DNA from: an uncultured Acidobacteriaceae bacterium
Lineage (GTDB): Bacteria > Acidobacteriota > Terriglobia > Terriglobales > Acidobacteriaceae
Length of the DNA stretch: 64,000 nucleotides
Reading direction: 5' to 3'
Assembly (NCBI GenBank): GCA_963837665.1
Contig: CAWIOA010000009.1
Location: 285,661-349,660, forward strand
This document shows, piece after piece, positions 11,300 through 39,902 of the stretch (position 1 is the stretch's first letter; each line of letters starts with the position of its first letter). The position numbers and the translations under genes were made by a program. A model generated the notes under the pieces. That model saw only the letters and a program-made list of their open reading frames with translations. It had not been told where the DNA came from and searched no databases.

Positions 11300-11376
11300 G
11301 GCGGTGTAGCTCAGGTGGTTAGAGCGACGGTCTCATAATCCGTAGGTCGTAGGTTCGAGTCCTACCGCCGCCACCA
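11300..11376 (+). tRNA. tRNA with CAT anticodon (elongator Met, or Ile2 if lysidine-modified)
   Basis: Manual cloverleaf. Acceptor GGCGGTG/CGCCGCC (one G-U), D-arm GCTC/GAGC, anticodon loop CTCATAA, T-arm GTAGG-TTCGAGT-CCTAC, encoded CCA. The G1-C72 pair argues against an initiator. Confidence 0.88.
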
Positions 11377-11794: not shown

Positions 11795-14215
11795 TTACTT
11801 GCCCGTACCCGTCAGATTCGAAGTCTGCGGGCCGTTGACCGCGCTGTCAGCCATGCTCAGCTGTCCCGTCCTCTTGCCTATCACGGTCGGGGTAAACGTC
11901 ACGCTAATCGTGCATTTGGCCTTGGCCTCCAGACTCGTCGTGCACGTTGTCGCCGAGACCGCAAAGTCTCCGGTCGTTGTGATTGCGATGCCGGTCAGTG
12001 GAACGGTCTGGTTGTTAGTCAAAGTGAACGTCTTCGGCAGACTGGTCGTGCCCACCTTCTGCGCCACGTAAGTGGCACTGGCCGGAGTCAGCGTCGCAGG
12101 CGTAATACCCGTGCCCGTCAGATTGGAGGTTTGCGGGCTGTTGCTGGCACTGTCGCTTACGCTCAACTGCCCCGTACGCGTCCCGATCGCCGTGGGGGTA
12201 AACGTCACGCTGATCGTGCATTTGGCCTTGGCCGCCAGACTCGTCCCGCAGGTCGTCGCCGAGACCGCAAAGTCTCCGGTCGTCGAGATGGCGATGCCGG
12301 TCAGCGTCACGGTCTGGTTGTTAGTCAAGGTAAACGTCTTCGGCAGACTGGTCGTGCCCTCCGCCTGTGCGGCGTAAGTAGCACTGGCCGGGGTCAGGGT
12401 CGCCGGCACGACGCCCGTGCCTGTGAGCGGTACGGTTTGCGGGCTGTTGTCGGCGCTGTCGCTCACGCTTAACTGCCCCGTCCTGTTGCCCGTTGTCGTC
12501 GGCGAGAACGTCACACTAATCGTGCATTTTCCTTTGGGGGCCAGGCTCGTCGCGCAAGCCGTGGCCGACACCGCAAAGTCTCCGGTCGTCGAGATTGCGA
12601 TGCTAGTCAGCGTTATGGTCTGGTTGTTGGTCAGCGTAAACGTCTTGGGCGAACTGGTCGTACCTACCGCCTGCGTGGCGTACGTGGCAGTGGCCGGGGT
12701 CAGCGTCGCCGACGGGACACCCGTGCCCGACAGCGCCACTGTCTGCGGGCTGTTGTCAGCGTTGTCGGTGATGGTGAGGGTCCCCGCCAGCGGGCCCAGC
12801 TGCGTGGGCGTGAAGGTGACACTGATCTTGCACTTCTTGCCCACGGCGAGCGTGGCGCCGCACGTATTTGCCAAAACCGCGAAGTCACCATTGATCGCGA
12901 CGTTGCTGATGGCCACAGAAACGGTACCGGTATTTGTCAACGTTATGTTCTTGGCAGCGCTGGTCGTGGAGGTCGCCTGAGGAGCGAAAGTGAGCGAAGT
13001 GGGCGAGAGTGTGACTGCGCCCGGCGCCAGCTCGAGGCTGAAGACCGTCCCGCAGCCGACCGTGCCGCAATTGCTGCTGGTACCTCCACGGAAGGTGGCG
13101 CCGTAGAATATCCCGTTCTTGGCTTGCACCAACCCTAAAGTTATCGCGCCGTCCGTGCCGTCGAAGCTGTGTAACGTGGTCAGGGTGCCCGTCGAGGTCA
13201 TTTTGAAAACGGTGCCACACCCGCCACCGCTGCAATTGCCGCTGCTACCTCCGAGTTCTGTGGTCCCGTAGAAGTCCCCGTCGGTGCCCTGCGCGAGCCC
13301 TGCTTCCGGGTAGGCGCCGTCCGTGTTATTGAAACTGTGTAGCGTGGTCAAGGTGCCCGCCGGGGTGATTTCAAAGACCGTGCCATAGTTGTTGGGCCCG
13401 TCGTCGTCGGTTGTCCCGTAGAAGTTCCCGTCGGCGCCTTGCGCGAGCCCCCCTATAGGGTAGGCGCCGTCCGTGTTATTGAAACTGTGCAGCGTGGTCA
13501 GGGTCCCCGCCAGCGTAATTTCGAAAACGGTGCCCAAGTTGTTGGTCCCGCCGTCCATGGTGGTGCCGTAGAAGTTCCCGTCGGAGCCCTGCACCAATCC
13601 AGCGTAAGGGTAAGAGCCGTCCGTGCCCGCGAAGGTGTAGAGCGTGGTCAGGGTGCCCGCCGGGGTCATTTTGAAAACGGTGCCCAAGTTGTTGCTCCCG
13701 CCGTACTCGGTTGTCCCGTAGAAGTTCCCGTCGGAGCCCTGCACCAATGCTGCGGTAGGCACAGCGCCGTCACTGACCACGAAGATGTGCAGCGTCGTCA
13801 GCGTACCGCTCGGAGTAATTTTGAAAACCGTGCCATGGCCGGTGCCGACTCCGCCAAAGCCTGTTGTCCCGTAGAAGTCCCCGTCGGTGCCTTGCACCAG
13901 TGCCGCGGTAGGGTTGGCGCCGTCGGTGCAGCTGCTTTGGGCGCAAAAACTGTACAGCGTGGTTAGCGCGCCCTCCGCTGTGATTTGAAAGACCGTGCCA
14001 GAGCCGTTGGCCCCACCGTAGAACGTTGTCCCGTAGAAGTTCCCGTCAGTGCCCTGGATGAGAGACGTCCCTGGATCAGCACCGTTGGTCATGTCGAAAT
14101 TTACCAGCGTGGTAAAGGTTTGCGCCGGGGATGCTATCGCCGTCACAGCCAACAACACAAAGACGATGGAGGTCATTCCCGTTAAGCAAGAAATCGTGAC
14201 CAGCGCTCGTTTCAT
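11795..14215 (-). CDS. Secreted repeat protein: N-terminal GloVer (Gloeo_Verruco-like) beta-propeller repeats plus four C-terminal Ig-like choice-of-anchor-D/HYDIN-like repeats
   Basis: Start set at ATG 14215 (MKRALVTISCL... signal peptide, AAGGAGGAA RBS upstream). About 8 repeats of GTDGNFYGTT..GG..G.GTVF..T..G.LTTL. Then there are four roughly 102-aa repeats, LTNN.T..L..I...GDFAV....C...L....KC.I.V.F.P...G.R.G.L...D.A.NSPQ. Confidence 0.8.
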   Translation of the reverse strand: MKRALVTISCLTGMTSIVFVLLAVTAIASPAQTFTTLVNFDMTNGADPGTSLIQGTDGNFYGTTFYGGANGSGTVFQITAEGALTTLYSFCAQSSCTDGANPTAALVQGTDGDFYGTTGFGGVGTGHGTVFKITPSGTLTTLHIFVVSDGAVPTAALVQGSDGNFYGTTEYGGSNNLGTVFKMTPAGTLTTLYTFAGTDGSYPYAGLVQGSDGNFYGTTMDGGTNNLGTVFEITLAGTLTTLHSFNNTDGAYPIGGLAQGADGNFYGTTDDDGPNNYGTVFEITPAGTLTTLHSFNNTDGAYPEAGLAQGTDGDFYGTTELGGSSGNCSGGGCGTVFKMTSTGTLTTLHSFDGTDGAITLGLVQAKNGIFYGATFRGGTSSNCGTVGCGTVFSLELAPGAVTLSPTSLTFAPQATSTTSAAKNITLTNTGTVSVAISNVAINGDFAVLANTCGATLAVGKKCKISVTFTPTQLGPLAGTLTITDNADNSPQTVALSGTGVPSATLTPATATYATQAVGTTSSPKTFTLTNNQTITLTSIAISTTGDFAVSATACATSLAPKGKCTISVTFSPTTTGNRTGQLSVSDSADNSPQTVPLTGTGVVPATLTPASATYAAQAEGTTSLPKTFTLTNNQTVTLTGIAISTTGDFAVSATTCGTSLAAKAKCTISVTFTPTAIGTRTGQLSVSDSASNSPQTSNLTGTGITPATLTPASATYVAQKVGTTSLPKTFTLTNNQTVPLTGIAITTTGDFAVSATTCTTSLEAKAKCTISVTFTPTVIGKRTGQLSMADSAVNGPQTSNLTGTGK
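11798..12709 (-). repeat. Three near-identical tandem coding repeats of about 306 bp (a fourth, more diverged unit extends to about 13015)
   Basis: Protein units ATLTPA(S/T)ATY...LTGTG recur with 102-aa spacing. DNA at 11801 and 12107 aligns with few mismatches. Confidence 0.8.
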
Positions 14216-24535: not shown

Positions 24536-25474
24536 ATGAGGAGAGAAGTTATGCCGCGAAATATATTCATGCTGATTGCCGTTGTGATAGCTGGCTTGGC
24601 GTTGAGCCTTTCGGCTTGGGGCCAGGCAACCACTTCGTTGCAGGGTACGGTCACAGATCCTACCGGCGCTGCGATTTCGGACGCCAAGGTGACCCTGACC
24701 AACGCCGCCACCAACATGGTCCGTGAGGCAACCACCTCGGGCAAAGGGGCGTATGAATTTATCTCGGTGCTGCCGGGGACGTACAAGTTGATGGTGGAGG
24801 CCAAGGGCTTCCGCACCTATGTGGAAACCGGAGTGCAGTTGTTCGTAAACCTGCCCGCAACCGCGAACGCCCGGTTGCAGGTCGGCGCCGTGGCGGAGAC
24901 GTTGGAGGTCACCGGCAAGGCCCCGTCGCTCAACACGACCGAACCCAGCCTCGGGCACACCATGGACTCGAACGAGATCGAGAACCTGCCGCTGCAAGCG
25001 GAGAACATGCCCCTGCTGCTCAGCCTGCAGCCCGGCGTCGTCTACAACGGCGAAGGCATCCTGGAAGACAGTTATGACACGCGCGCCGGATCGGTGAACG
25101 GCGAGCGCAGCGACCAGAACAATATCACGCTGGACGGCGTGAGCATCAACGACGAATTCAACGGCTACGCCTTCACGGGGGTTTTGCCATCCACGCCATA
25201 TTCGGTGGAAGAATTTCGGGTAACCACTTCCAACTATGACGCGACCCAGGGCCGCTCCGCCGGCGCTCAGATCGCCATGGTCACGAAGGGCGGTACTAAC
25301 GCGTTTCACGGTTCGCTGTACGAGTTCAACCGGAACACAGTCGGAGAGGCCAACGACTACTTCCTGAAACAGTCCCAATTGGCTGCTGGCCTGTCGAACG
25401 TGCCGGAACACCTGGTGAGGAATATCTACGGCGGGACCATCGGCGGGCCGATTCTGAAGGACCGCCTGTTCTTT
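24536..25474 (+). CDS. TonB-dependent receptor (carboxypeptidase-regulatory-like N-domain), exon 1, interrupted by group II intron
   Basis: Signal peptide, then GTVTDPTGAAISDAKVTLTN...GAYEFISVLPGTYKL (CarboxypepD_reg) and plug-domain motifs. The reading frame leaves conserved sequence exactly at 25474 (..GGPILKDRLFF), where the intron GTGTG begins. Confidence 0.85.
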
Positions 25475-27353
25475 GTGTGCCGAACATGTTCGACAGCTAG
25501 GGGGTGAAAGTCCCCTGCCCAACCTGGTGGAGGTGAAGGGCTAGAGAAGCGCAAGGGCGTCGTCGCGAGGCGGGGTCTGAAAGAAGCGTGGATCAAAGGC
25601 GCGAGCCGATGGACAAGAACCGGATAACGAGGCCTACGGTGTGGGGCGAGTTGGCAAAGGACAGCGAAGCCCGTGTCCACCAAGCACACTGGTGGTAAAT
25701 CCGGCGGTTGCGCGTCGAAGGCGGTCGAACTTACTTCGGGAGACCCGCCGCATGTCACGGAATCGTGACTGAGGATGGAGCGATTCATCCTGACCGTGGG
25801 GCGGGAGTCAGCAGCGGGCATAGTAGGCCGCGAGGTCGAAGGCCCAAACAGCCAGGAGCGGCGAGTAGGACGCAGGACTCGATGAACGACAAGCGGCAGA
25901 AAAACCAGCTACAGATGGCGCTGGCCTTTACCGGGGAGGGGAGGAGTGAAGCTCCAAGGGCTCCGCGGGAAGGGACCGAATCGTTCACGGCGAAGTGCGA
26001 AACCGAAAGTCCGGCTGGAGAAGAGCAACTGATGGAAGAGGTCTGCGGGCGGGAAAACTGTCAGCGGGCTTTACGACGAGTGAAGGCCAACAAGGGCAGT
26101 CCGGGAATCGACGACATGAAAGTGTCGGAGTTGCCGGGCTACCTGAAGCAGCACTGGCCAGCGATTCGGGAACAACTGTTGAGCGGGACTTATCAACCGC
26201 AACCGGTGCGGCGAGTGGAAATAGCCAAACCGGACGGAGGGATGCGCAAGCTGGGCATTCCGACGGTGTTGGATCGGTTTATTCAGCAGGCGGTGATGCA
26301 GGTTCTGCAAGTCAGATGGGACCCGACGTTTTCCGAACATAGTCACGGGTTTCGTCCGCAACGTTCGGCGCATCAGGCGGTGGCCAAGGCGCAGCAGTAT
26401 ATCGCCGAGGGCAACCGCTGGGTGGTGGATCTCGATCTGGAAAAGTTCTTTGATCGAGTGAATCACGACAAACTGATGGCGGCGATCGCGCGGCGGGTGA
26501 GCGACAAGAGGATGCTCAAGCTGATCCGAGCTTTTCTGGAGTCGGGCGTGATGGAGAACGGGTTGGTGAGTTCGGTGGAGGAAGGAACTCCGCAAGGAGG
26601 ACCTCTGTCACCGCTGCTGTCGAATCTCGTGCTCGACGAACTCGACCGGGAGTTGGAGCGACGTAAGCACCGTTTCGTGCGCTACGCGGATGATTGCAAT
26701 ATCTACGTGGCCAGCGAGCGGGCGGGGAAGCGAGTCATGCAAAGCGTGACCGGTTTCCTGCGGCGGCGACTCAAGCTCAAGGTGAATGAGGCGAAGAGCG
26801 CGGTGGCGCGACCGCAGGAGCGCAAGTTCCTGGGCTTCAGCTTTACCGGCAGGAGAGAACCGAAACGGCGCATCGCGCCTAAGGCTCTCGACCGCTGTAA
26901 GCGAAAAGTACGGGAACTCACGCGACGAACACGGGGCATCAGTCTGGAACAGATGATGAAGCAACTCGCCACCTATTTACGTGGCTGGAAGAGTTACTTC
27001 GGCTTCAGCCAGACGCCCTCGGTGCTGCGTAGGCTGGAGGAATGGATGCGACGCAGGTTGCGATCCGTGATCTGGAAGCAATGGAAGCGCAGCAAGGTGC
27101 GGTATGTGAAGCTGCGCCAGCGGAACATCGGACATGCCCTCGCGGCACAAACCGCCGGCAGTCCCTATGGACCATGGCGTCTGGCCAACAGCCCGGCCCT
27201 GTCGTCTGCGTTTCCGATTGCTTACTTCGACGTGCTCGGTCTTCCTCGCTTGTTGGACGTGCTCTAGCTTAACCGAACTGAACCGCCGTATGCGGACCCG
27301 CATGTACGGTGGTGTGGCAGGGGAGGAGAGGTGACTCTCCCCCCTATGCCGAT
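25475..27353 (+). mobile_element. Group II intron, copy 1 (1879 nt, IIC-like)
   Basis: Limits were defined by where the two copies start and stop being identical. 5' GTGTG, 3' ...GAT. Domain V is at 27283-27312 (ccgccgtatgcg-gacc-cgcatgtacggtgg with a 2-nt bulge), followed by a domain VI hairpin. Encodes an RT/maturase in domain IV. Confidence 0.9.
25882..27267 (+). CDS. Group II intron reverse transcriptase/maturase (no endonuclease domain evident)
   Basis: Start at ATG 25882 (MNDKRQKN). RT motifs GSPGIDDM, RRVEIAKPDGGMRKLGIPTVLDRFIQQA, GTPQGGPLSPLLSN, VRYADDCNIY (YADD). Maturase X region LRGWKSYFGF. No HNH/Zn motif at the C-terminus. Confidence 0.95.
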   Translation: MNDKRQKNQLQMALAFTGEGRSEAPRAPREGTESFTAKCETESPAGEEQLMEEVCGRENCQRALRRVKANKGSPGIDDMKVSELPGYLKQHWPAIREQLLSGTYQPQPVRRVEIAKPDGGMRKLGIPTVLDRFIQQAVMQVLQVRWDPTFSEHSHGFRPQRSAHQAVAKAQQYIAEGNRWVVDLDLEKFFDRVNHDKLMAAIARRVSDKRMLKLIRAFLESGVMENGLVSSVEEGTPQGGPLSPLLSNLVLDELDRELERRKHRFVRYADDCNIYVASERAGKRVMQSVTGFLRRRLKLKVNEAKSAVARPQERKFLGFSFTGRREPKRRIAPKALDRCKRKVRELTRRTRGISLEQMMKQLATYLRGWKSYFGFSQTPSVLRRLEEWMRRRLRSVIWKQWKRSKVRYVKLRQRNIGHALAAQTAGSPYGPWRLANSPALSSAFPIAYFDVLGLPRLLDVL

Positions 27354-30281
27354 TTCTTTAATTACGAAGGCCAACGGCAATCGAAACAAGAGAGCGCGCT
27401 ACGGAATATCCCCACCCCGTCGCTGGCCGATGGAATCCTTCAGTATGAATGCGACGATGCGGGCGAATGTCCCGGCGGCAGCGCCACGGGCATAAGCGGC
27501 AACAGCTACCCAGTCCAGCCCGGCTACTACGCGCTGACTAACACAGACCTCATGCAGATGGATCCGGCTCACATTGGGCCGAACCAGGCGGCGCTTGGTT
27601 ACTTTGGCATATTTCCAAAGGCTAACGACTTCACGGTAGGCAATGGCGTGAACTTCGCCGGGTATCGCTTTGCTGCCCCAACGAAGTTTTCCAATAACTG
27701 GTTCATTGGCCGACTGGACTACGAACTGACTCGAAACGGCAACCATACGCTTTTCCTGCGCGGTGCAGCCCGCAATGATCGCTTTTCCGACACGCCGTTT
27801 CTTCCTGGCACAGCGCCAGAGGATGGGTCGGTGGACGTCAGCAAGGGGTTTGTCTTGGGCTACACGGGTGTTTTCGGACCGCATTGGGTCAACAACGTGC
27901 GCTATGGCCTCACCCACCAGAGCATCGCAACCGCGGGCGATTCCGGCCAACCGTGGATTCTCATGCGGGGGCTAGACGAGCCGAACCTCTATGGGGGTGC
28001 GTTTACCGCGCCGGTGCACAATCTGGTGGACACCGCCTCCTGGAACAAGGGAACGCACAACTTCCAGTTTGGCGCGAACCTGCTGTTCATCCGCCGAAAC
28101 AGCTTCAGTACCTACAACTCTTTCAGCGACGGAATTACGAACTCCGACTACCTCTTCTCCGGCGGCTTTGCCAACAAGAACTCGCCTCTCGATCCCACCT
28201 ACGGCTGCGCTTCTTCCGGCCCCTGCTTTCCGGCAGTTTCCGGCGATTTCAACAACGGCTATGACTTTCCCATGGCGGCGCTGATGGGCATCGTCAGCGA
28301 AGTGGATGCCCGCTACAACTACAAGGTCGCTAACCTGACTACCGCCACCCCGATCGGGCAGGGGCTTCCGATCACGCGCCACTGGGCAACCGACACCTAC
28401 AACCTGTTCTTCCAGGATACATGGCATGCGCGGCCCAACTTAACGGTGACCTACGGCTTGAATTATCAACTGATGATGCCCATCACCGAAACCGCAGGGC
28501 AGCAAGTGACGCCGTCGGTAAATATGGGCGCATGGTTCAACCAGCGCGCCCTTAACGCCAGCAAAGGCATCCCCTCGAACCAGGATGCGCCGATCGCGTT
28601 CGCACCTTCCGGTTCGGTTTATGGCAGGAGCGGTTTGTATTCTGCACAAACCAAGAATTTCGCTCCGCGCGTAGGAGTCTCCTGGACGCCACACTCCAGT
28701 TGGGGATGGCTAAAGGAGATGCTGGGCGAGGACAAGACGGTGGTTCGCGCCGGGGCCGGAATGTACTACGACAACTTCGGTCCGGCGCTGGCGATGAACT
28801 ACGACGCGAACGGTACGTTTGGCCTTTCGAGCGTGCTCTCGAATCCGGCCGCCACGTTGACCCTCAACGACGCTCCTCGCATGACCAGCATGAATGTGAT
28901 CCCAACCACTGACAATTCCGGTAACCCCATCATGCTGCCCCCCCCGCCCTCTACATTCCCGGTTACCTTTCCGCAGGGCGCCGAGGCGATTGCGTCAGGG
29001 ATTGACCAATCTATAAAGACTCCCTACTCCTACGCTCTGGATTTGTCGATCCAGCGGCAGTTACCGGGACGGATGACTCTGGACGTAGCATACGTCGGGC
29101 ACTTCGGTCATAGATTGCTCGCTTTGGACGATGTCGCCGCCCCGCTCAACCTGAAAGACCCGAAATCGGGAATCGACTACTTCACCGCAGCAAAGCAAAT
29201 GTCGAAGCTGTGGCGCGCCGGCACTCCCGAGAGCAGCATCACGCCTGCGGTGGTCGGGCCGACGGCACAATACTGGCAGAACATACTGTCGACACCGTCC
29301 AATGGGCAATACTCGCTTTGCTCGACCGGAGGGACGACACCCAACCTGTTGATCGCTACCTACGACGCTTTCAGCCCTGGCTGCGGCAGCCTCTACAACG
29401 AGACCACCGCACCCTGGATCATGGACTTGTACGGTATCCCGAGCACACCTGTAACGGGGCCGAACAGCTTCTACAACAGCCAGTACTCGTCACTATGGGA
29501 CTGGCGCTCGATCGGCTACTCGAACTACAACGCCCTGCAGGTTGGTCTGCACCGGCAGATGTCCCATGGAGTCCTGTTCGGGCTTAACTACACTTACAGC
29601 AAGTCTAACGACATCGCGTCGCAGGCAGAACGCGGCATCCACTATCTTACGGACAGCATCATTAATCCATGGTCCCCCAATCAAATGTACGGTCCCAGCG
29701 ATTTCGATTTGCGGCACCAGATCAACGGCTTCTGGGTGGTGGAGTTGCCCTTTGGCCGAGGTAAACGAATCGGTGGGGACGTCAGCAAACTGGCCGACGC
29801 CCTGATCGGCGGCTGGCAACTTGGCGGGACCGCGCGCGTCACCTCGGGATACACAACCAGCGTGTTCATGGGCTACGTCTGGCCGACCAACTGGGATGAA
29901 ATGGGATGGGCGGATTTGACCGGCAAACCCATCAAGACGGGGACGACGATGGTCAATGGAACGCCCAATATATTCAAGAATCCCACCCAGGCGAGCGCGG
30001 GTTTCGATTATGCCTATCCGGGCGAAAGCGGCTCCCGTAATCCTATTCGCGGCGATGGTTACTTAGGCGTGGACATGAACCTGGCGAAGACCTGGAAGAT
30101 GCCCTTTGCGGAAAATCAGAAACTGCAATTGCGCTGGAGCGTTTTCAACGTGACCAATACCGCTCGATTCGACGCCTACTCGATGCAGGACGAGGTGGAT
30201 TCCGGGAGCACGTTCGGGAACTACACCCAAACGCTGACTCACCCACGTACGATGGAGATCGCTTTGACTTATCAATTCTGA
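27354..30281 (+). CDS. TonB-dependent receptor, exon 2
   Basis: In frame with exon 1 after removal of 25475-27353. Begins FFNYEGQRQ and ends with beta-barrel terminal ...IALTYQF. The joined product is 1288 aa. Confidence 0.85.
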   Translation, partial: FFNYEGQRQSKQESALRNIPTPSLADGILQYECDDAGECPGGSATGISGNSYPVQPGYYALTNTDLMQMDPAHIGPNQAALGYFGIFPKANDFTVGNGVNFAGYRFAAPTKFSNNWFIGRLDYELTRNGNHTLFLRGAARNDRFSDTPFLPGTAPEDGSVDVSKGFVLGYTGVFGPHWVNNVRYGLTHQSIATAGDSGQPWILMRGLDEPNLYGGAFTAPVHNLVDTASWNKGTHNFQFGANLLFIRRNSFSTYNSFSDGITNSDYLFSGGFANKNSPLDPTYGCASSGPCFPAVSGDFNNGYDFPMAALMGIVSEVDARYNYKVANLTTATPIGQGLPITRHWATDTYNLFFQDTWHARPNLTVTYGLNYQLMMPITETAGQQVTPSVNMGAWFNQRALNASKGIPSNQDAPIAFAPSGSVYGRSGLYSAQTKNFAPRVGVSWTPHSSWGWLKEMLGEDKTVVRAGAGMYYDNFGPALAMNYDANGTFGLSSVLSNPAATLTLNDAPRMTSMNVIPTTDNSGNPIMLPPPPSTFPVTFPQGAEAIASGIDQSIKTPYSYALDLSIQRQLPGRMTLDVAYVGHFGHRLLALDDVAAPLNLKDPKSGIDYFTAAKQMSKLWRAGTPESSITPAVVGPTAQYWQNILSTPSNGQYSLCSTGGTTPNLLIATYDAFSPGCGSLYNETTAPWIMDLYGIPSTPVTGPNSFYNSQYSSLWDWRSIGYSNYNALQVGLHRQMSHGVLFGLNYTYSKSNDIASQAERGIHYLTDSIINPWSPNQMYGPSDFDLRHQINGFWVVELPFGRGKRIGGDVSKLADALIGGWQLGGTARVTSGYTTSVFMGYVWPTNWDEMGWADLTGKPIKTGTTMVNGTPNIFKNPTQASAGFDYAYPGESGSRNPIRGDGYLGVDMNLAKTWKMPFAENQKLQLRWSVFNVTNTARFDAYSMQDEVDSGSTFGNYTQTLTHPRTMEIALTYQF

Positions 30282-33470: not shown

Positions 33471-33657
33471 GATGAATGAGTTTAACCTCTCCCGGGTAGA
33501 GAGCACGGGCAGGGCGCAGCCAGCGACATGCAGGGCCAGTGCAGAAGTGTGGACCACAAGAATCATGATCCAGAGGGTAACTTGAGCACTAACACTTAGG
33601 TAACGTCGTCATTCAGACCGGACGCAACTAATCTTGCGGCTGAGGGTTTCTATCGAC

Positions 33658-34038
33658 ATGAACAATAAATTCACCAACTCGCTGTTAATCCTGGCAGTCG
33701 GGGCCCTGATGATCGCCGGTTCCGCCGCTGCTCAAACCTCCACCAACACTTCGGGCGCGGGTCCTGGCGTGGTCGATCCCGGCCATCCGCGGGTCAATGA
33801 AGTCAATCGCCGCGAAGGCAACCAGCAGCAGCGCATTGGCAACGGCATTAAGAGCGGGAAATTGAGCTCGCAGCAGACGACGAACCTGGAAAAGCGCGAG
33901 ACCAGCGTGCAGAACCGTGAACAGAAAGACATGGCGGCGCACAACGGACATCTCACCAAGTCCGAGCAGAAGGGAATCAATCGCCAGCAGAACCGGATCA
34001 GCAAGAGTATCTACAAAGACAAGCACCCCAAGCAGTAA
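33658..34038 (+). CDS. Hypothetical small secreted protein, Gln/Asn/Lys-rich
   Basis: 126 aa from ATG 33658. Signal peptide MNNKFTNSLLILAVGALMIAGSAAAQ, followed by a good terminator. No family recognised. Confidence 0.5.
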   Translation: MNNKFTNSLLILAVGALMIAGSAAAQTSTNTSGAGPGVVDPGHPRVNEVNRREGNQQQRIGNGIKSGKLSSQQTTNLEKRETSVQNREQKDMAAHNGHLTKSEQKGINRQQNRISKSIYKDKHPKQ

Positions 34039-34073: not shown

Positions 34074-34101
34074 GCCGCAGCGTTGCTGCGGCGTTTTCTT
34101 T
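34074..34101 (+). terminator. Rho-independent terminator (also the insertion site of intron copy 2)
   Basis: gccgcagc-gtt-gctgcggc (8-bp stem) followed by gttttcttt. The intron begins at the next base. Confidence 0.75.
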
Positions 34102-35980
34102 GTGTGCCGAACATGTTCGACAGCTAGGGGGTGAAAGTCCCCTGCCCAACCTGGTGGAGGTGAAGGGCTAGAGAAGCGCAAGGGCGTCGTCGCGAGGCGG
34201 GGTCTGAAAGAAGCGTGGATCAAAGGCGCGAGCCGATGGACAAGAACCGGATAACGAGGCCTACGGTGTGGGGCGAGTTGGCAAAGGACAGCGAAGCCCG
34301 TGTCCACCAAGCACACTGGTGGTAAATCCGGCGGTTGCGCGTCGAAGGCGGTCGAACTTACTTCGGGAGACCCGCCGCATGTCACGGAATCGTGACTGAG
34401 GATGGAGCGATTCATCCTGACCGTGGGGCGGGAGTCAGCAGCGGGCATAGTAGGCCGCGAGGTCGAAGGCCCAAACAGCCAGGAGCGGCGAGTAGGACGC
34501 AGGACTCGATGAACGACAAGCGGCAGAAAAACCAGCTACAGATGGCGCTGGCCTTTACCGGGGAGGGGAGGAGTGAAGCTCCAAGGGCTCCGCGGGAAGG
34601 GACCGAATCGTTCACGGCGAAGTGCGAAACCGAAAGTCCGGCTGGAGAAGAGCAACTGATGGAAGAGGTCTGCGGGCGGGAAAACTGTCAGCGGGCTTTA
34701 CGACGAGTGAAGGCCAACAAGGGCAGTCCGGGAATCGACGACATGAAAGTGTCGGAGTTGCCGGGCTACCTGAAGCAGCACTGGCCAGCGATTCGGGAAC
34801 AACTGTTGAGCGGGACTTATCAACCGCAACCGGTGCGGCGAGTGGAAATAGCCAAACCGGACGGAGGGATGCGCAAGCTGGGCATTCCGACGGTGTTGGA
34901 TCGGTTTATTCAGCAGGCGGTGATGCAGGTTCTGCAAGTCAGATGGGACCCGACGTTTTCCGAACATAGTCACGGGTTTCGTCCGCAACGTTCGGCGCAT
35001 CAGGCGGTGGCCAAGGCGCAGCAGTATATCGCCGAGGGCAACCGCTGGGTGGTGGATCTCGATCTGGAAAAGTTCTTTGATCGAGTGAATCACGACAAAC
35101 TGATGGCGGCGATCGCGCGGCGGGTGAGCGACAAGAGGATGCTCAAGCTGATCCGAGCTTTTCTGGAGTCGGGCGTGATGGAGAACGGGTTGGTGAGTTC
35201 GGTGGAGGAAGGAACTCCGCAAGGAGGACCTCTGTCACCGCTGCTGTCGAATCTCGTGCTCGACGAACTCGACCGGGAGTTGGAGCGACGTAAGCACCGT
35301 TTCGTGCGCTACGCGGATGATTGCAATATCTACGTGGCCAGCGAGCGGGCGGGGAAGCGAGTCATGCAAAGCGTGACCGGTTTCCTGCGGCGGCGACTCA
35401 AGCTCAAGGTGAATGAGGCGAAGAGCGCGGTGGCGCGACCGCAGGAGCGCAAGTTCCTGGGCTTCAGCTTTACCGGCAGGAGAGAACCGAAACGGCGCAT
35501 CGCGCCTAAGGCTCTCGACCGCTGTAAGCGAAAAGTACGGGAACTCACGCGACGAACACGGGGCATCAGTCTGGAACAGATGATGAAGCAACTCGCCACC
35601 TATTTACGTGGCTGGAAGAGTTACTTCGGCTTCAGCCAGACGCCCTCGGTGCTGCGTAGGCTGGAGGAATGGATGCGACGCAGGTTGCGATCCGTGATCT
35701 GGAAGCAATGGAAGCGCAGCAAGGTGCGGTATGTGAAGCTGCGCCAGCGGAACATCGGACATGCCCTCGCGGCACAAACCGCCGGCAGTCCCTATGGACC
35801 ATGGCGTCTGGCCAACAGCCCGGCCCTGTCGTCTGCGTTTCCGATTGCTTACTTCGACGTGCTCGGTCTTCCTCGCTTGTTGGACGTGCTCTAGCTTAAC
35901 CGAACTGAACCGCCGTATGCGGACCCGCATGTACGGTGGTGTGGCAGGGGAGGAGAGGTGACTCTCCCCCCTATGCCGAT
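34102..35980 (+). mobile_element. Group II intron, copy 2 (1879 nt)
   Basis: Every ORF-track translation inside it is identical to copy 1, with a constant offset of 8627 nt. Same GTGTG...GAT ends. Domain V is at 35910-35939. Confidence 0.9.
34509..35894 (+). CDS. Group II intron reverse transcriptase/maturase (identical to 25882-27267)
   Basis: Identical 519-aa ORF-track translation. Functional start inferred at the MNDKRQKN methionine. Confidence 0.95.
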   Translation: MNDKRQKNQLQMALAFTGEGRSEAPRAPREGTESFTAKCETESPAGEEQLMEEVCGRENCQRALRRVKANKGSPGIDDMKVSELPGYLKQHWPAIREQLLSGTYQPQPVRRVEIAKPDGGMRKLGIPTVLDRFIQQAVMQVLQVRWDPTFSEHSHGFRPQRSAHQAVAKAQQYIAEGNRWVVDLDLEKFFDRVNHDKLMAAIARRVSDKRMLKLIRAFLESGVMENGLVSSVEEGTPQGGPLSPLLSNLVLDELDRELERRKHRFVRYADDCNIYVASERAGKRVMQSVTGFLRRRLKLKVNEAKSAVARPQERKFLGFSFTGRREPKRRIAPKALDRCKRKVRELTRRTRGISLEQMMKQLATYLRGWKSYFGFSQTPSVLRRLEEWMRRRLRSVIWKQWKRSKVRYVKLRQRNIGHALAAQTAGSPYGPWRLANSPALSSAFPIAYFDVLGLPRLLDVL

Positions 35981-36074
35981 TGTCCGGGCGCTTGGGGTGC
36001 GAATAAGACAAAGGAAAACGGCCGGGAGAGACTCCCAGCCGTTTCTTGGGGAACTTCTACTACAGAGCTATTTC

Positions 36075-39000
36075 TTACCAGTTTATTTTTAGCGCGAACT
36101 GGAACTGGCGCGGGTCGTAGGCGGCGGTGGCCTGGCCGGCGTTGCAGGTTGTACCGCAGAGCGGGCTTACGGCGGCTACGTTGTACACGTTGGCGATGTT
36201 GAACATATCAGCGATGAGGTCCATGTTGAAGCGTTCGCTGAAGTAGACGCGCTTGGCGATGCGCAGGTCGTTAAAGACTGTCCATGGGGAGAGGCCTGCG
36301 TTGCGGCCGAGGTTGCCGTCGAGAAGCCTGAGAGCGTTGGGTTGAAGGAGCTGTGCAAACGAGATGTCGGCAAAGCACGGCTCCTGAAAGAAGCCCGTGC
36401 GCGAGTATTTCGAAGGCAGCGTCGGGTAGCCACAAGCATTGGTGGGGGTTCCGGACGGCACAATATTGGGACGACCCGTTTCCGAAGAAAACTGAAAGTT
36501 GTCGCCACTGCCGGTGACGATGTTGAATGGCCGCCCGGAACTTAATTCGACGAGGGGAGCGAAAGTCCAATTGCTGAAGAATTTGCTGGCGAAACCGCTG
36601 CCGCTGAGTTTGCCCGACTGGTAGACACCGCTGAAGACGAAGCGATGACGCTGATCAAAGAGCGACGTGGAACGATCGGCGCTCGGGAAGTAGCTGTCCT
36701 GCGGGGTAAGGGTGGCCTGCAGGTCGGTGGAATCGTCGATCGCGTGCGACCAGGTGTAGGAGGCGAGGAATTCATAGTGATTGCTGAAGCGCTTGCGGAG
36801 ATTGGCGCTCAGCCCGTGATAGACCGAACTGCCGTTGGATTCGTTGGCATCCATGTCGCTGAAAGGGATCAAAACACAGCCGCCGGAAGAGCCAAACGCC
36901 AGGGCAGGATCGCAGGCGCTGCCGTTCGGGCCCAGACCAATTCCATCCTGTTTGGCGAGCGCCTGGGCATCTCCGAGACACGGGCCACCCGCAAGCGAGG
37001 GATTCAGACCCGAGCGGCGGAAGAAACTGAGCATAGAGGCAGGCGCGAAGAGGCCGGCTGGCTCGATTCCTCCAATCGCGGTGGGGCAAATGGCAACCGA
37101 GAGCGGGTCAGAGGGAATTGGAACCGGAATGCCCAAAGACTGAGCGTACTGTGCTGCGGCAACAGCGGCATAGAAGTTCTTCACCAGCAAGTCTCCCCGA
37201 GGAGAATTGGCATTGATCGGCCGGTTCAGGTGATGGCCGCCGTTAAAGTTGTAAGCGAGATTCACCGCGAAACCATTGCCGAGGTCTTTCTCGATACTAA
37301 AGTTGATTTGCTGAGAATAGGCGTAGACGAAGCCCTTGCCCTCCGGATACCCGAACGGCTGGGAGATGAGCGGGAAGGCGCCCAAGGGACTCGACCCGGT
37401 CAGGTAGCTCTGGTTAAGAAAAGGAGAATTGGGCAAGCAAGGGTCGAAGCGCTGCGGGTTGGGTCCCGCGCCGCATGCGGCTCCCGGAGCCGTATCGTTC
37501 TGATAGCCAAGAGCGGCGGCGAATCCGGTGCCAGCTGACCCGGGAAGCAGACAATTCGGGGCTCCCTGAATGCCCTGAAACATATTGGTGGCGTTCAGAT
37601 TGAGCGGAGTGGCGTTTAGGGGATTTCCGTCGCAGGGACTGGAGCCGAAGAAGAGCAATTGGCCGGTCTTGGAGGCGTCGGCGGCATCGCCCAGAAAGTA
37701 CAGACCGAGCAGAGGGTGATCGTAGAAAATGCCGTAGGAGGCGCGGACAACCGTCTTACCGTCGCCTTTCGGATTCCAGGCAATTCCGATGCGAGGCTGA
37801 ATGTTGTTCTTATCCGTCTGGATGCCCTTCTGTATTCCCAGGGCGCCATAGCCGGGCAGACCCAGGCCAGTGGGTGGCGCGAAGGTTGGGGGAAACTCTA
37901 CGTCGTAGCGAGCACCCAGGTTCAGTGTGACGTTTGACCGAACGCGCCAGGAATCCTGCCAATACAGTCCCAGGGGCTTATTGGAGAATGAGTCCTTCGG
38001 GTTGCCGACGCCTTGCACTATGTACGAAGGGATTCCTGCGCCATACGCCTGTACTGAATTAGCTGCGGGGAGACCCGCGGCCAGGCTCTCGGGGCTGAAG
38101 TTGTACACGCCGCCGTAGTTAACAGTAAACGTTGCCTGCAAAGGCAGATAGTTAAAGTCCACGCCGAACTTGGTATTGTGGCGGCCCATGGTCCAGGAGA
38201 AGTTGTCGGTGAACTGGTAGCGGCTTTCGACGCGCTGGATGAAAGAGTATGGCTCGCGCCCGATGTAGGCATAACCAATGATGTTCACAGCCGGATCGGC
38301 TCCGGCGGCGATGGACTTGTTGTAGAAATATGCCAAACCCCGGCGGGCATACTGGAAGCGAAACTCATTGACCTTGTTGTTGCCGAGGGTCCAGGTGTCT
38401 TGAAAGACTCCGGCCGCGTCGCGGTAGGTTTGCTCCGAGGTGCGGGAGTAGGCGTTCTGGCCGAAGGGCTGGTCCTGGCCGTTGACTTCGATGCCGGTCA
38501 CGGTACTGGGACTGACGTTGGCGCGCAATGTCAGGCGGTTGCGGCTATTGATATTGTGGTCGATGCGCAGCGAGTAGAGGCTGGTGCCTTCAAACACCGG
38601 AAAATTTCCACTTTGCGAACCGAGACTCTGAAATGACGCAGGTAAACCCCCGCAGATCAGAGCAGGTGTTATCAAATTGCACGAGGTCGGGAACTGTTGT
38701 GGTCCAGATCCTCCTGGAGCGAACGGGAGCGCCGCAAACGCCTGTTGGTTTCCGGTTAACGCGACCCATGACGAGGCGCCCAGCAACCAGGTGTAGGCCT
38801 CGACTGGCAGAGGCGCGGGACCCGCTTGCGCGAATGGAGCCAGGAATGCAGCCTGCTCAGCCGTAGCCGGCATGGTAAATGTGCCCGGCGGTAAAAGGGG
38901 GTTGAAGATTCCAGTGGCATCAAAACTCTGCAGCCCGTAGTACCCCAGGTTTGTCGCCGGGGCAATGCTGGAGAATCCCGTCTCATGCCGCCGTGTCGTC

Positions 39001-39902
39001 TCGTAGGCGAAGTAGTAGTAGGTCTTGTCCTTCTTGATCGGCCCGCCAAAGGCCACTCCGCCCTGTGCCCGGGTGTAGGCGGGGTTGGAGACCGTGCTGA
39101 AGGGGTTGACGGCCTGGAAATTGCGATTGCGCAGGTATCCGTAGACGTCGCCGTGGAAGTCGTTCGATCCGGAGCGGGTGATGATGTTGACCACGCCTCC
39201 GGCGGCGCGGCCGTATTCGGCGGCGTAGTTGTTGGTGATGATCTGGAATTCCTGCACCGCTTCCTGCGAGACGGTGGAGCGGACGCCGTTGGTGGAATTG
39301 TCGGTGGCGTCGGCGCCGTCGACGTTGACCAGGTTGGAACGGGCGCGCTGGCCGCTCATGTTGAGGCCGGAGGTCGGCGCCGCACCGACGTTGGGGGCGC
39401 TATCGCGCTGCACTTGCGAATCGGTCAGCGTGAACTGGATGTAGTTGCGGCCATTGATGGGCAGATTGTCAATGCGGCGCTCGCCAACAGTGTCGGTGGT
39501 GGAACTGCGTGACGTTTCAATGTTCTCGGCCTCGGAGCTGACCTCGACGATTTCCTTGCCGCCGGCGACGGTGAGCGTGACCGGCAACTCGGCCATCCCA
39601 CCGACGGTGATTTCAACGCCGGTGGCCTCGGTCCTGGCAAAGCCAGGAGCATCGACGGTGACGGAATAAGTGCCGGGAGCCAATTGACGCACACTGTAGC
39701 CACCCTGGCCGTCGCCGCTGCCGGCACGTTCCAGACCCTTGGCGATATCGCGCACGGTGACTGCGGCGTTGGTCACGACGTTGCCTTTTGGATCTTTCAC
39801 GCTCACGCGGAGGTCGCCGGTGGCAGCGCCCTGGGCAAATGCAGATTGGCGGACCAGCAAGAAGATGACCGCGAAAAAGAACAGACGCAAGGACGCTTTC
39901 AT
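36075..39902 (-). CDS. TonB-dependent receptor with carboxypeptidase-regulatory-like N-domain
   Basis: 1275 aa. Signal peptide, LRVSVKDPKGNVVTNAAVTV...GGYSVRQLAPGTYSV, plug motifs (RIDNLPINGRNY, VNVDGADATD), GGPIKKDKTYYYFAYE, and terminal ...FALKINW. Confidence 0.9.
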   Translation of the reverse strand: MKASLRLFFFAVIFLLVRQSAFAQGAATGDLRVSVKDPKGNVVTNAAVTVRDIAKGLERAGSGDGQGGYSVRQLAPGTYSVTVDAPGFARTEATGVEITVGGMAELPVTLTVAGGKEIVEVSSEAENIETSRSSTTDTVGERRIDNLPINGRNYIQFTLTDSQVQRDSAPNVGAAPTSGLNMSGQRARSNLVNVDGADATDNSTNGVRSTVSQEAVQEFQIITNNYAAEYGRAAGGVVNIITRSGSNDFHGDVYGYLRNRNFQAVNPFSTVSNPAYTRAQGGVAFGGPIKKDKTYYYFAYETTRRHETGFSSIAPATNLGYYGLQSFDATGIFNPLLPPGTFTMPATAEQAAFLAPFAQAGPAPLPVEAYTWLLGASSWVALTGNQQAFAALPFAPGGSGPQQFPTSCNLITPALICGGLPASFQSLGSQSGNFPVFEGTSLYSLRIDHNINSRNRLTLRANVSPSTVTGIEVNGQDQPFGQNAYSRTSEQTYRDAAGVFQDTWTLGNNKVNEFRFQYARRGLAYFYNKSIAAGADPAVNIIGYAYIGREPYSFIQRVESRYQFTDNFSWTMGRHNTKFGVDFNYLPLQATFTVNYGGVYNFSPESLAAGLPAANSVQAYGAGIPSYIVQGVGNPKDSFSNKPLGLYWQDSWRVRSNVTLNLGARYDVEFPPTFAPPTGLGLPGYGALGIQKGIQTDKNNIQPRIGIAWNPKGDGKTVVRASYGIFYDHPLLGLYFLGDAADASKTGQLLFFGSSPCDGNPLNATPLNLNATNMFQGIQGAPNCLLPGSAGTGFAAALGYQNDTAPGAACGAGPNPQRFDPCLPNSPFLNQSYLTGSSPLGAFPLISQPFGYPEGKGFVYAYSQQINFSIEKDLGNGFAVNLAYNFNGGHHLNRPINANSPRGDLLVKNFYAAVAAAQYAQSLGIPVPIPSDPLSVAICPTAIGGIEPAGLFAPASMLSFFRRSGLNPSLAGGPCLGDAQALAKQDGIGLGPNGSACDPALAFGSSGGCVLIPFSDMDANESNGSSVYHGLSANLRKRFSNHYEFLASYTWSHAIDDSTDLQATLTPQDSYFPSADRSTSLFDQRHRFVFSGVYQSGKLSGSGFASKFFSNWTFAPLVELSSGRPFNIVTGSGDNFQFSSETGRPNIVPSGTPTNACGYPTLPSKYSRTGFFQEPCFADISFAQLLQPNALRLLDGNLGRNAGLSPWTVFNDLRIAKRVYFSERFNMDLIADMFNIANVYNVAAVSPLCGTTCNAGQATAAYDPRQFQFALKINW

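Follow-up and report, generated by a model that had tools for sequence, protein, structure and literature searches.

The stretch of DNA considered here, a window of 64,000 nt on contig CAWIOA010000009.1 of an uncultured Acidobacteriaceae bacterium, carries on its plus strand what appear to be two fragments of a TonB-dependent receptor gene with a stray reverse transcriptase (RT) gene between them, which raises the question of what kind of element separates the fragments and how it came to lie there. An earlier note on this DNA had ascribed class IIC-like hallmarks to a group II intron at this position, and the RNA features, the similarity of the intron-encoded protein (IEP) and the targeting of terminators bear this out. 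We are highly confident that two identical copies of an intact bacterial group IIC intron (IEP class C) are present, a retroelement that combines a IIC RNA architecture with a IIC-lineage RT/maturase devoid of an endonuclease. The locus is correctly annotated as a single receptor gene into which a mobile intron has inserted.

The element occupies positions 25475–27353 (copy 1, within the coding sequence (CDS) of the receptor) and 34102–35980 (copy 2), both on the plus strand, and the two copies of 1879 nt are identical at 1879 of 1879 positions. The identity stops exactly at these coordinates, beyond which only an upstream TTCTTT is common to both sites. The complete identity of the copies indicates recent mobility; the donor is not distinguishable between them. 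Features given below for copy 1 recur in copy 2 at the copy 1 coordinate plus 8627, placing exon-binding site 1 (EBS1) at 34283–34286, the IEP gene at 34509–35894 and domain V at 35910–35939. The intron starts with GUGUG, the 5′ splice-site consensus (25475–25479; G1, U2 and G5 do not vary among 41 of the relatives described below), ends with AU and contains a single long open reading frame (ORF; 25882–27267, 461 aa). The RNA outside the ORF measures 493 nt, with 407 nt 5′ of the ATG (25882) and 86 nt 3′ of the stop (27267), in agreement with the previous estimate of about 490 nt. Comparison with the Rfam covariance models, a check proposed in the earlier note, yielded matches alike in both copies: RF02001 (group-II-D1D4-3) was matched over its full length with 121 bits (E 2.6e-24), and RF01998 (D1D4-1; 38 bits) as well as RF00029 (domains V–VI; 41.6 bits) scored above their gathering scores, so that a chance origin is excluded. 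For copy 1 the limits set by the identity break and the Rfam models are further supported by the restoration of the receptor reading frame on removal.

IIC ribozymes are characterized by an abbreviated size, a domain V distal stem that is 2 bp shorter than in IIA and IIB introns, a CGC instead of an AGC catalytic triad, an 11-nt bulge near ε′ with a conserved AGGAA, a IIB-like EBS3, an EBS1–IBS1 pairing (IBS, intron-binding site) of only 3–4 bp, and the lack of EBS2, with a terminator stem-loop in place of IBS2 (PMC1702495). To compare the element with this architecture, we used 80 loci encoding IEP relatives (64–93% identity), mostly from Acidobacteriota metagenome-assembled genomes (MAGs) and in a few cases from Alphaproteobacteria or other groups, whose intron ends were located with nhmmer. 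The first ~385 nt of 41 sequences were aligned, and the domains of the RNAalifold consensus were projected on the window. The consensus for domains I–III comprises 109 pairs, 72 of them with compensatory changes. Counted explicitly, 97.0% of the cells are paired, as opposed to 34–43% when the 3′ partners are slid by 1–3 columns, and the covariation score is 0.442 versus 0.07–0.09 for the slid partners; none of 500 shuffles reached the observed values. The secondary structure thus obtained, with domains I–III from the consensus fold and domains V–VI from RF00029, corresponds to the structure prediction suggested in the earlier note. Domain I spans 260 nt (25480–25739) and is closed by the helix 25480–25484/25735–25739, with compensatory changes in its consensus fold and with RF02001 covering 25559–25730. 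Domain II (25740–25809) forms a three-way junction of the consensus helices 16–18, with compensatory changes in 20 of 27 pairs, and RF01998 begins within it at 25770. J2/3, reading AGCAGC (25810–25815), directly precedes domain III (25816–25845), which is delimited by both the RF01998 alignment and the RNAalifold consensus. Domain IV with the IEP gene lies between the model matches for domains III and V, with approximate limits at 25846–27280.

Domain V lies at 27283–27312, as previously located, and consists of 30 nt, CCGCCGUAU-GCG-GACC-CGC-AU-GUACGGUGG, folding into a 9-bp basal stem, an AU bulge, a 3-bp distal stem (GCG/CGC) and a GACC loop. The RF00029 alignment places the triad CGC (27284–27286) under the consensus AGC, as the note had read it, and deletes four columns relative to the 5-bp distal stem of the model, giving 30 instead of 34 nt. 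The motif AACCGCC with the CGC triad and the 30-nt length are kept in all 53 distinct 3′ ends of the relatives, where the basal stem shows the compensatory variants CCGUAU/GUACGG, CCGGAU/GUCCGG and CCGUGU/GCACGG. Domain VI (27316–27350), delineated by the RF00029 alignment and the sequence, contains a bulged A27346, the putative branch point, 7 nt 5′ of the 3′ splice site.

The hexamer AAAGAA at 25580–25585 had been put forward as a candidate EBS1, with doubts about its early position, and it is indeed present and perfectly complementary to the TTCTTT preceding both copies. It falls into an 11-nt motif, GUCUGAAAGAA (25575–25585), which directly follows the first hairpin of RF02001 and is unpaired in the alignment to that model (consensus aUCUGAAGGAA); an unpaired 11-nt motif near ε′ is itself a IIC hallmark (PMC1702495). 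Among 75 relatives, the hexamer reads AAAGAA in 42 and AAGGAA in 28, i.e. one or the other in 70, independently of the 5′ exon and within a near-invariant UCUGAARGAAG. Only 3 of 51 distinct exon combinations are fully complementary to it, and a different loop covaries with the exon, which rules out the hexamer as EBS1 to the extent that we consider such a role barely conceivable. The covarying loop is the 8-nt loop 25654–25661 of the hairpin 25650–25653/25662–25665, where the four bases past a conserved GC vary with the last 3–4 nt of the 5′ exon. Loop and exon pairs such as AUA/...UAU, AAC/...GUU, CAA/...UUG, UCG/...CGA, CGG/...CCG, GACG/...CGUC and UACU/...AGUA illustrate this relation, and full pairing at three positions is found in 43 of 55 distinct exon/loop combinations, compared to an expectation of 8.6 and a maximum of 17 over 2000 shuffles; for four positions the count is 19 of 55, compared to 3.4 expected. 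EBS1 is therefore assigned to AAAG at 25656–25659, pairing with the IBS1 CUUU, and a longer pairing, AAAGGA/UUCUUU with a single G-U pair, could form. The note had named an EBS1 elsewhere, together with a canonical AGC triad in a different helix, as speaking against class IIC; EBS1 does lie elsewhere, but no alternative domain V with AGC exists, so that this objection does not apply.

A blind scan of every alignment column for association with the first 3′-exon base identified column 25698 (intron position 224) with the highest mutual information (0.71 bit), where 28 of 60 sequences have A-T and 26 have G-C, corresponding to 90% Watson–Crick pairs. The A at this position is thus EBS3, pairing with the first 3′-exon base (IBS3, U). 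Within the 260 nt of domain I no further loop covaries with the exon. As a crude measure for EBS2, we determined the longest stretch of exon positions −5 to −16 that is complementary to domain I; its mean was 7.49 for the domain I of the same locus and 7.40 for unrelated ones, so that there is no EBS2 signal.

The 461-aa IEP (25882–27267, plus strand) comprises an RT domain with an intact YADD motif, a maturase/X domain and a carboxy-terminal DNA-binding region. Pfam analysis yielded RVT_1 (residues 114–320, 143.7 bits) and GIIM (337–412, 70.5 bits), whereas no HNH or other nuclease domain was matched in the Pfam scan, in accordance with the RT and X domains and the missing DNA endonuclease that had been read from the translation. 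The match to TIGR04416 reached 431 bits, and the 49 carboxy-terminal residues align with the D domain of the GsI-IIC RT. In a search against all PDB sequences, which cover only IIA, IIB and IIC representatives and provide a similarity ranking rather than a tree, the best match was the GsI-IIC RT with 477 bits and 54% identity over 408 ungapped residues (query 50–457, chain 3–410). It was followed by the Eubacterium rectale group II RT/maturase (350 bits) and the RT-domain chains 5hhj (304 bits) and 5hhl (297 bits), while LtrA (IIA; 158 bits) and the protein of 6me0 (IIB; 115 bits) scored considerably lower. The class IIC maturases of E. rectale and Roseburia intestinalis (7UIM, 5HHJ, 5HHL) share the domain order of the IEP, more distantly than GsI-IIC. 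An amino-terminal extension of ~48 aa (MNDKRQKNQLQMALAFTGEGRSEAPRA..., window 25882–26025) precedes the region aligned with the GsI-IIC RT; its protein sequence is conserved in nearly all of the 80 relatives, whose matches begin at residue 1–2.

Class C introns insert after terminators or attC sites and not at sequence-specific homing sites (PMC4424553, PMC7306698). In nearly all relatives, the intron lies downstream of a strong GC-rich hairpin with a T-rich tail, the distance from the stem end to the intron being mostly 6–8 nt. For 77 distinct insertion sites, the upstream 45 nt have a median DNA-parameter fold energy of −11.6 kcal/mol, compared to a window background of −5.0 ± 2.5 kcal/mol. 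As the introns of the relatives follow strong hairpins at 6–8 nt, they exhibit the class C target pattern. Copy 2 shows the same arrangement: it begins 9 nt past an 8-bp hairpin with seven GC pairs (34074–34092), which together with the tail GTTTTCTTT forms the intrinsic terminator (34074–34101, plus strand) of an upstream small secreted-protein gene (33634–34038) and ends in the IBS1 CTTT at 34098–34101. The claim that one copy sits directly behind a terminator thus applies to copy 2.

Copy 1 is preceded within the CDS by an imperfect branched hairpin (25430–25466, plus strand; outer stem GGCGG 25430–25434 / CCGCC 25462–25466) and then by TGTTCTTT, with the stem ending 8 nt before the insertion. 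Its fold energy of −9.2 kcal/mol (DNA parameters) lies in the lowest 5.9% of 3000 sampled 45-mers, and the hairpin was not called by the terminator scan. Ranked by upstream fold energy among the 104 CTTT/T sites on both strands of the intron-less window, the site of copy 2 is 3rd and that of copy 1 is 5th. At the copy 1 site, IBS1 (CUUU, extendable to UUCUUU) and IBS3 (U) are those of copy 2, in a common TTCTTT/T junction. Of the two TTCTTT in the target TTCTTTTTCTTT, the first (8 nt from the stem) and not the second (14 nt) precedes the insertion, a choice that fits a distance rule. The hairpin at 25430–25466 is likely a terminator mimic that was used as the target of copy 1.

The gene interrupted by copy 1 is otherwise intact. 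Exon 1 (24536–25474, plus strand, 313 codons) encodes CarboxypepD_reg, Plug and positions 1–58 of OMP_b-brl_4, ends with ...KDRLFF and carries the IBS1 CTTT at 25471–25474. Exon 2 (27354–30281, plus strand, 975 codons and the stop) starts with FFNYEGQ, encodes OMP_b-brl_4 positions 59–837 and provides the IBS3 T27354, so that the barrel profile (PF25183) resumes exactly where exon 1 leaves off. Removal of the intron yields a continuous reading frame, the predicted spliced junction 25474/27354 reading ...CTGTTCTTT/TTCTTTAAT... (CTGTTCTTT/TTCTTTAATTAC), and both exons are long open frames devoid of further lesions. The joined protein, ...GGPILKDRLFF/FFNYEGQR..., aligns without gaps across the junction to the paralogue at 36075–39902 (GGPIKKDKTYYYFAYETTR). 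A metagenome scan for DNA encoding KDRLFFFFNYEGQ revealed eight uninterrupted genes, and the uninterrupted metagenomic orthologue L086 covers residues 25–1288 of the spliced product in one segment with 69.7% identity. Based on the profile continuity, the ungapped junction and this orthologue, copy 1 is a sense insertion placed exactly between two codons.

Both boundaries were checked for ~47 relatives, and in this set a long sense ORF is clearly interrupted by copy 1 alone. Two further candidates were rejected: at L029 a hairpin and T-run lie upstream and the ORF begins downstream, and at L046 the open stretch is antisense. The rarity of such insertions agrees with the avoidance of coding sequences by class C introns (PMC7306698). 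A likeness between the 3′ flanks of copy 1 and L017 (TTCTTTAATTAC versus TTCTCTAATTAT) was dismissed as chance, with divergence after 11 nt and an intergenic location of the L017 intron.

Adopting the steps known for class C introns (PMC4424553, PMC1702495, PMC7306698), the ribonucleoprotein would recognise a DNA stem-loop, normally an intrinsic terminator, by its shape together with 3–4 bp of IBS1–EBS1 and a single IBS3–EBS3 pair. The intron RNA would then reverse-splice into the strand bearing the stem-loop, a few bases past the stem, and without a nuclease the nascent strand of the replication fork would serve as the primer for cDNA synthesis. Copy 2, 9 nt past a terminator hairpin and after TTCTTT, occupies a textbook site. 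For copy 1, the most likely origin is insertion by this mechanism at a site of similar appearance, where a weak branched hairpin is followed by TGTTCTTT/T with the same IBS1 and IBS3. As copy 1 lies in sense orientation exactly between codons, IEP-assisted splicing would restore the receptor mRNA (...KDRLFF/FFNYEG...). With respect to the replicated strand, the cumulative GC skew of the plus strand is positive, suggesting that this strand is probably leading-strand sequence. Both copies would then reside in the template of the lagging strand, where introns without an endonuclease are expected. This signal is weak and inflated by the introns themselves, which lie in the two highest-skew bins, and we set it aside as proof of a replication-strand bias.

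How firmly the element can be placed in class IIC depends on RNA and protein together, since IIC RNAs and class C IEPs are in one-to-one correspondence and class C IEPs lack an endonuclease domain (PMC4424553, PMC7306698). The assignment follows from the compact ribozyme, the CGC triad with a short distal stem, the 11-nt bulge, an EBS1 of 3–4 bp, the single EBS3 pair and the lack of EBS2, as well as from an endonuclease-less IEP closest to known IIC RTs and from relatives that insert after terminator hairpins. Four points weigh against it. The class of the IEP is deduced from the PDB similarity ranking and not from a phylogeny against classes A, B, D, E and F. The core of the bulge reads AAGAA, as in 42 of 75 relatives, instead of the canonical AGGAA found in 28, so that length and position match while one base differs. 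Copy 1 has no recognisable terminator upstream, its hairpin being weak and branched. Finally, splicing of IIC introns in vitro is described as poor and mostly hydrolytic (PMC7161350, PMC4748821), and for the present element splicing and mobility are inferred. The identical copies at unrelated sites, the intact YADD motif and the conserved catalytic RNA elements are indirect evidence of self-splicing and retromobility. The missing endonuclease domain is common to classes C, D, E and F (PMC4424553), and as no D, E or F reference was included in the IEP comparison, an intron from one of these other lineages, with IIB-like RNA and a superficial likeness to IIC, could be envisaged. The RNA features already contradict this: IIB-type RNA, to which classes D, E and F belong (PMC4424553), is characterized by an EBS1 of ~6 bp, the presence of EBS2, the triad AGC and 2 additional bp in the distal stem (PMC1702495), whereas here domain V is 30 nt long with CGC, EBS1 comprises 3–4 nt and there is no EBS2 signal. 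Together with targets that are hairpins rather than conserved homing sites, and an IEP that shares 54% identity with a named IIC RT over its full length, this renders such an origin extremely improbable.

For copy 1, the fate of the host gene is less clear, and two readings have to be weighed. It is quite possible that copy 1 represents an ectopic dead end and has knocked out the receptor gene without productive splicing, the gene being dispensable owing to paralogues. Several observations agree with a knock-out: coding sequences are normally avoided by IIC introns (PMC7306698), exon ligation in vitro failed for B.h.I1 when its upstream stem-loop was mispaired (PMC1702495), copy 1 is preceded by a weak hairpin, at least one receptor paralogue lies in the same window (36075–39902), and copy 1 stands alone among the ~47 relatives checked in clearly splitting a long sense ORF. 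The sense orientation and the insertion exactly between codons speak for the opposite, as do the intact IEP, which could serve as a maturase, and an IBS1–EBS1 pairing that could reach 6 bp at copy 1. The open exons without other lesions point in the same direction, although this is weak evidence, because with 100% identical copies the insertion may be too recent for decay. More tentatively, copy 1 may be a gene-resident IIC intron that entered the conserved FFFF motif (TTCTTT/TTCTTT) via the terminator-like coding hairpin and is spliced in vivo sufficiently for receptor expression. If residence in the gene were true, this would be a natural example of a IIC intron of the terminator-targeting kind that resides in a protein-coding host gene and depends on being spliced out of it. 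Copy 1 constitutes a small natural experiment on the stem-loop needed for IIC targeting and exon ligation, and the 80 relatives provide a clean natural covariation set from which both EBS1 and EBS3 of an acidobacterial IIC clade can be fixed. The locus does not settle any open question. Class C is already the most abundant bacterial intron class, accounting for half of the introns mined (PMC7306698), and the only mildly unusual feature is the in-frame sense insertion into a conserved receptor gene at a terminator look-alike.

Compared to known IIC introns, the IEP shares the RT, X and D architecture without endonuclease of the GsI-IIC protein from Geobacillus stearothermophilus (RT structures 6AR1, 6AR3, 7K9Y), and GsI-IIC is cited as a highly proliferative IIC intron inserting after terminators (PMC7306698). 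The two differ in the ~48-aa amino-terminal extension, which is absent from the crystallised protein, and in the host phylum, Acidobacteriota versus Firmicutes, the comparison covering the proteins. The reference IIC ribozyme B.h.I1 of Bacillus halodurans (PMC1702495) resembles the intron in its small size, the short distal stem, the CGC triad, the length and position of the 11-nt bulge, the 3–4 bp of EBS1–IBS1, the IIB-like EBS3, the absence of EBS2 and the terminator stem-loop replacing IBS2. In contrast to B.h.I1, the bulge of the window intron contains AAGAA rather than AGGAA, and one copy lies inside a coding sequence; the failure of exon ligation in vitro for the B.h.I1 copy with a poor stem-loop bears on the splicing of copy 1. 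The crystallised IIC ribozyme O.i.I1 from Oceanobacillus iheyensis offers a further lead, as its domain V flanks GAACCGCCGUAU...GUACGGUGGUGUG and its UCUGAAGGAAGCG motif are presumably near-identical. Its J2/3 and domain III presumably contain GUCAGCAGA...CAUAGUA, and its EBS3 presumably lies near position 223, compared to 224 here. The likeness serves as a lead, not as a test. In its crystallised form, O.i.I1 has neither the ORF nor domain VI.

A group of the relatives, L047–L080, deviates in its target sites. Their IEPs are 64–68% identical to that of the window, they are hosted by Alphaproteobacteria and Acidobacteriota MAGs plus a Bradyrhizobium, and no T-rich terminator is found upstream (e.g. 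L058 2430–2519, L064 2429–2518, L071 946–1035). Instead, the target is a conserved short bulged hairpin, ...GCACGCGAAGCGTC-CGCCGC-NNNN-GCGGC-TTCGTT, followed by the intron and by CAAACG or CAAGTCG, with an EBS1 of AACG, AACU or GACG matching CGUU, AGUU or CGUC. Several of these loci have a reversed ribosome-binding site and start codon directly upstream, and their targets may be attC-like or belong to cassette arrays, i.e. the introns may be IIC-attC-like. The two window copies do not belong to the IIC-attC subclass, which inserts into attC opposite to cassette transcription: both lie behind T-rich tails, and copy 2 is co-oriented with its upstream gene.

Several other relatives form head-to-tail tandem or nested introns (L011 2593–4463, then from 4464; L018 2572–4463, then from 4464; L035 1948–6971). 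At the tandem junction, ...AUGCCGAU/GUGUGCCGAG..., the domain VI hairpin of the first intron appears to be the target stem-loop for the next insertion.

In the remainder of the window, the second TonB-dependent receptor paralogue (1275 aa, 36075–39902, minus strand) converges on copy 2, and a 14-bp hairpin between them (36015–36045) resembles a bidirectional terminator. Two sets of tandem direct repeats, unrelated to the intron, occupy 11802–12713 (three units of ~306 nt at 76–84% identity) and 13260–14056 (three to four units of 150 nt at 75–83% identity), both probably within a gene for a repeat-domain protein. A tRNA gene is located at 11300–11373 on the plus strand (Rfam RF00005, 70.7 bits).

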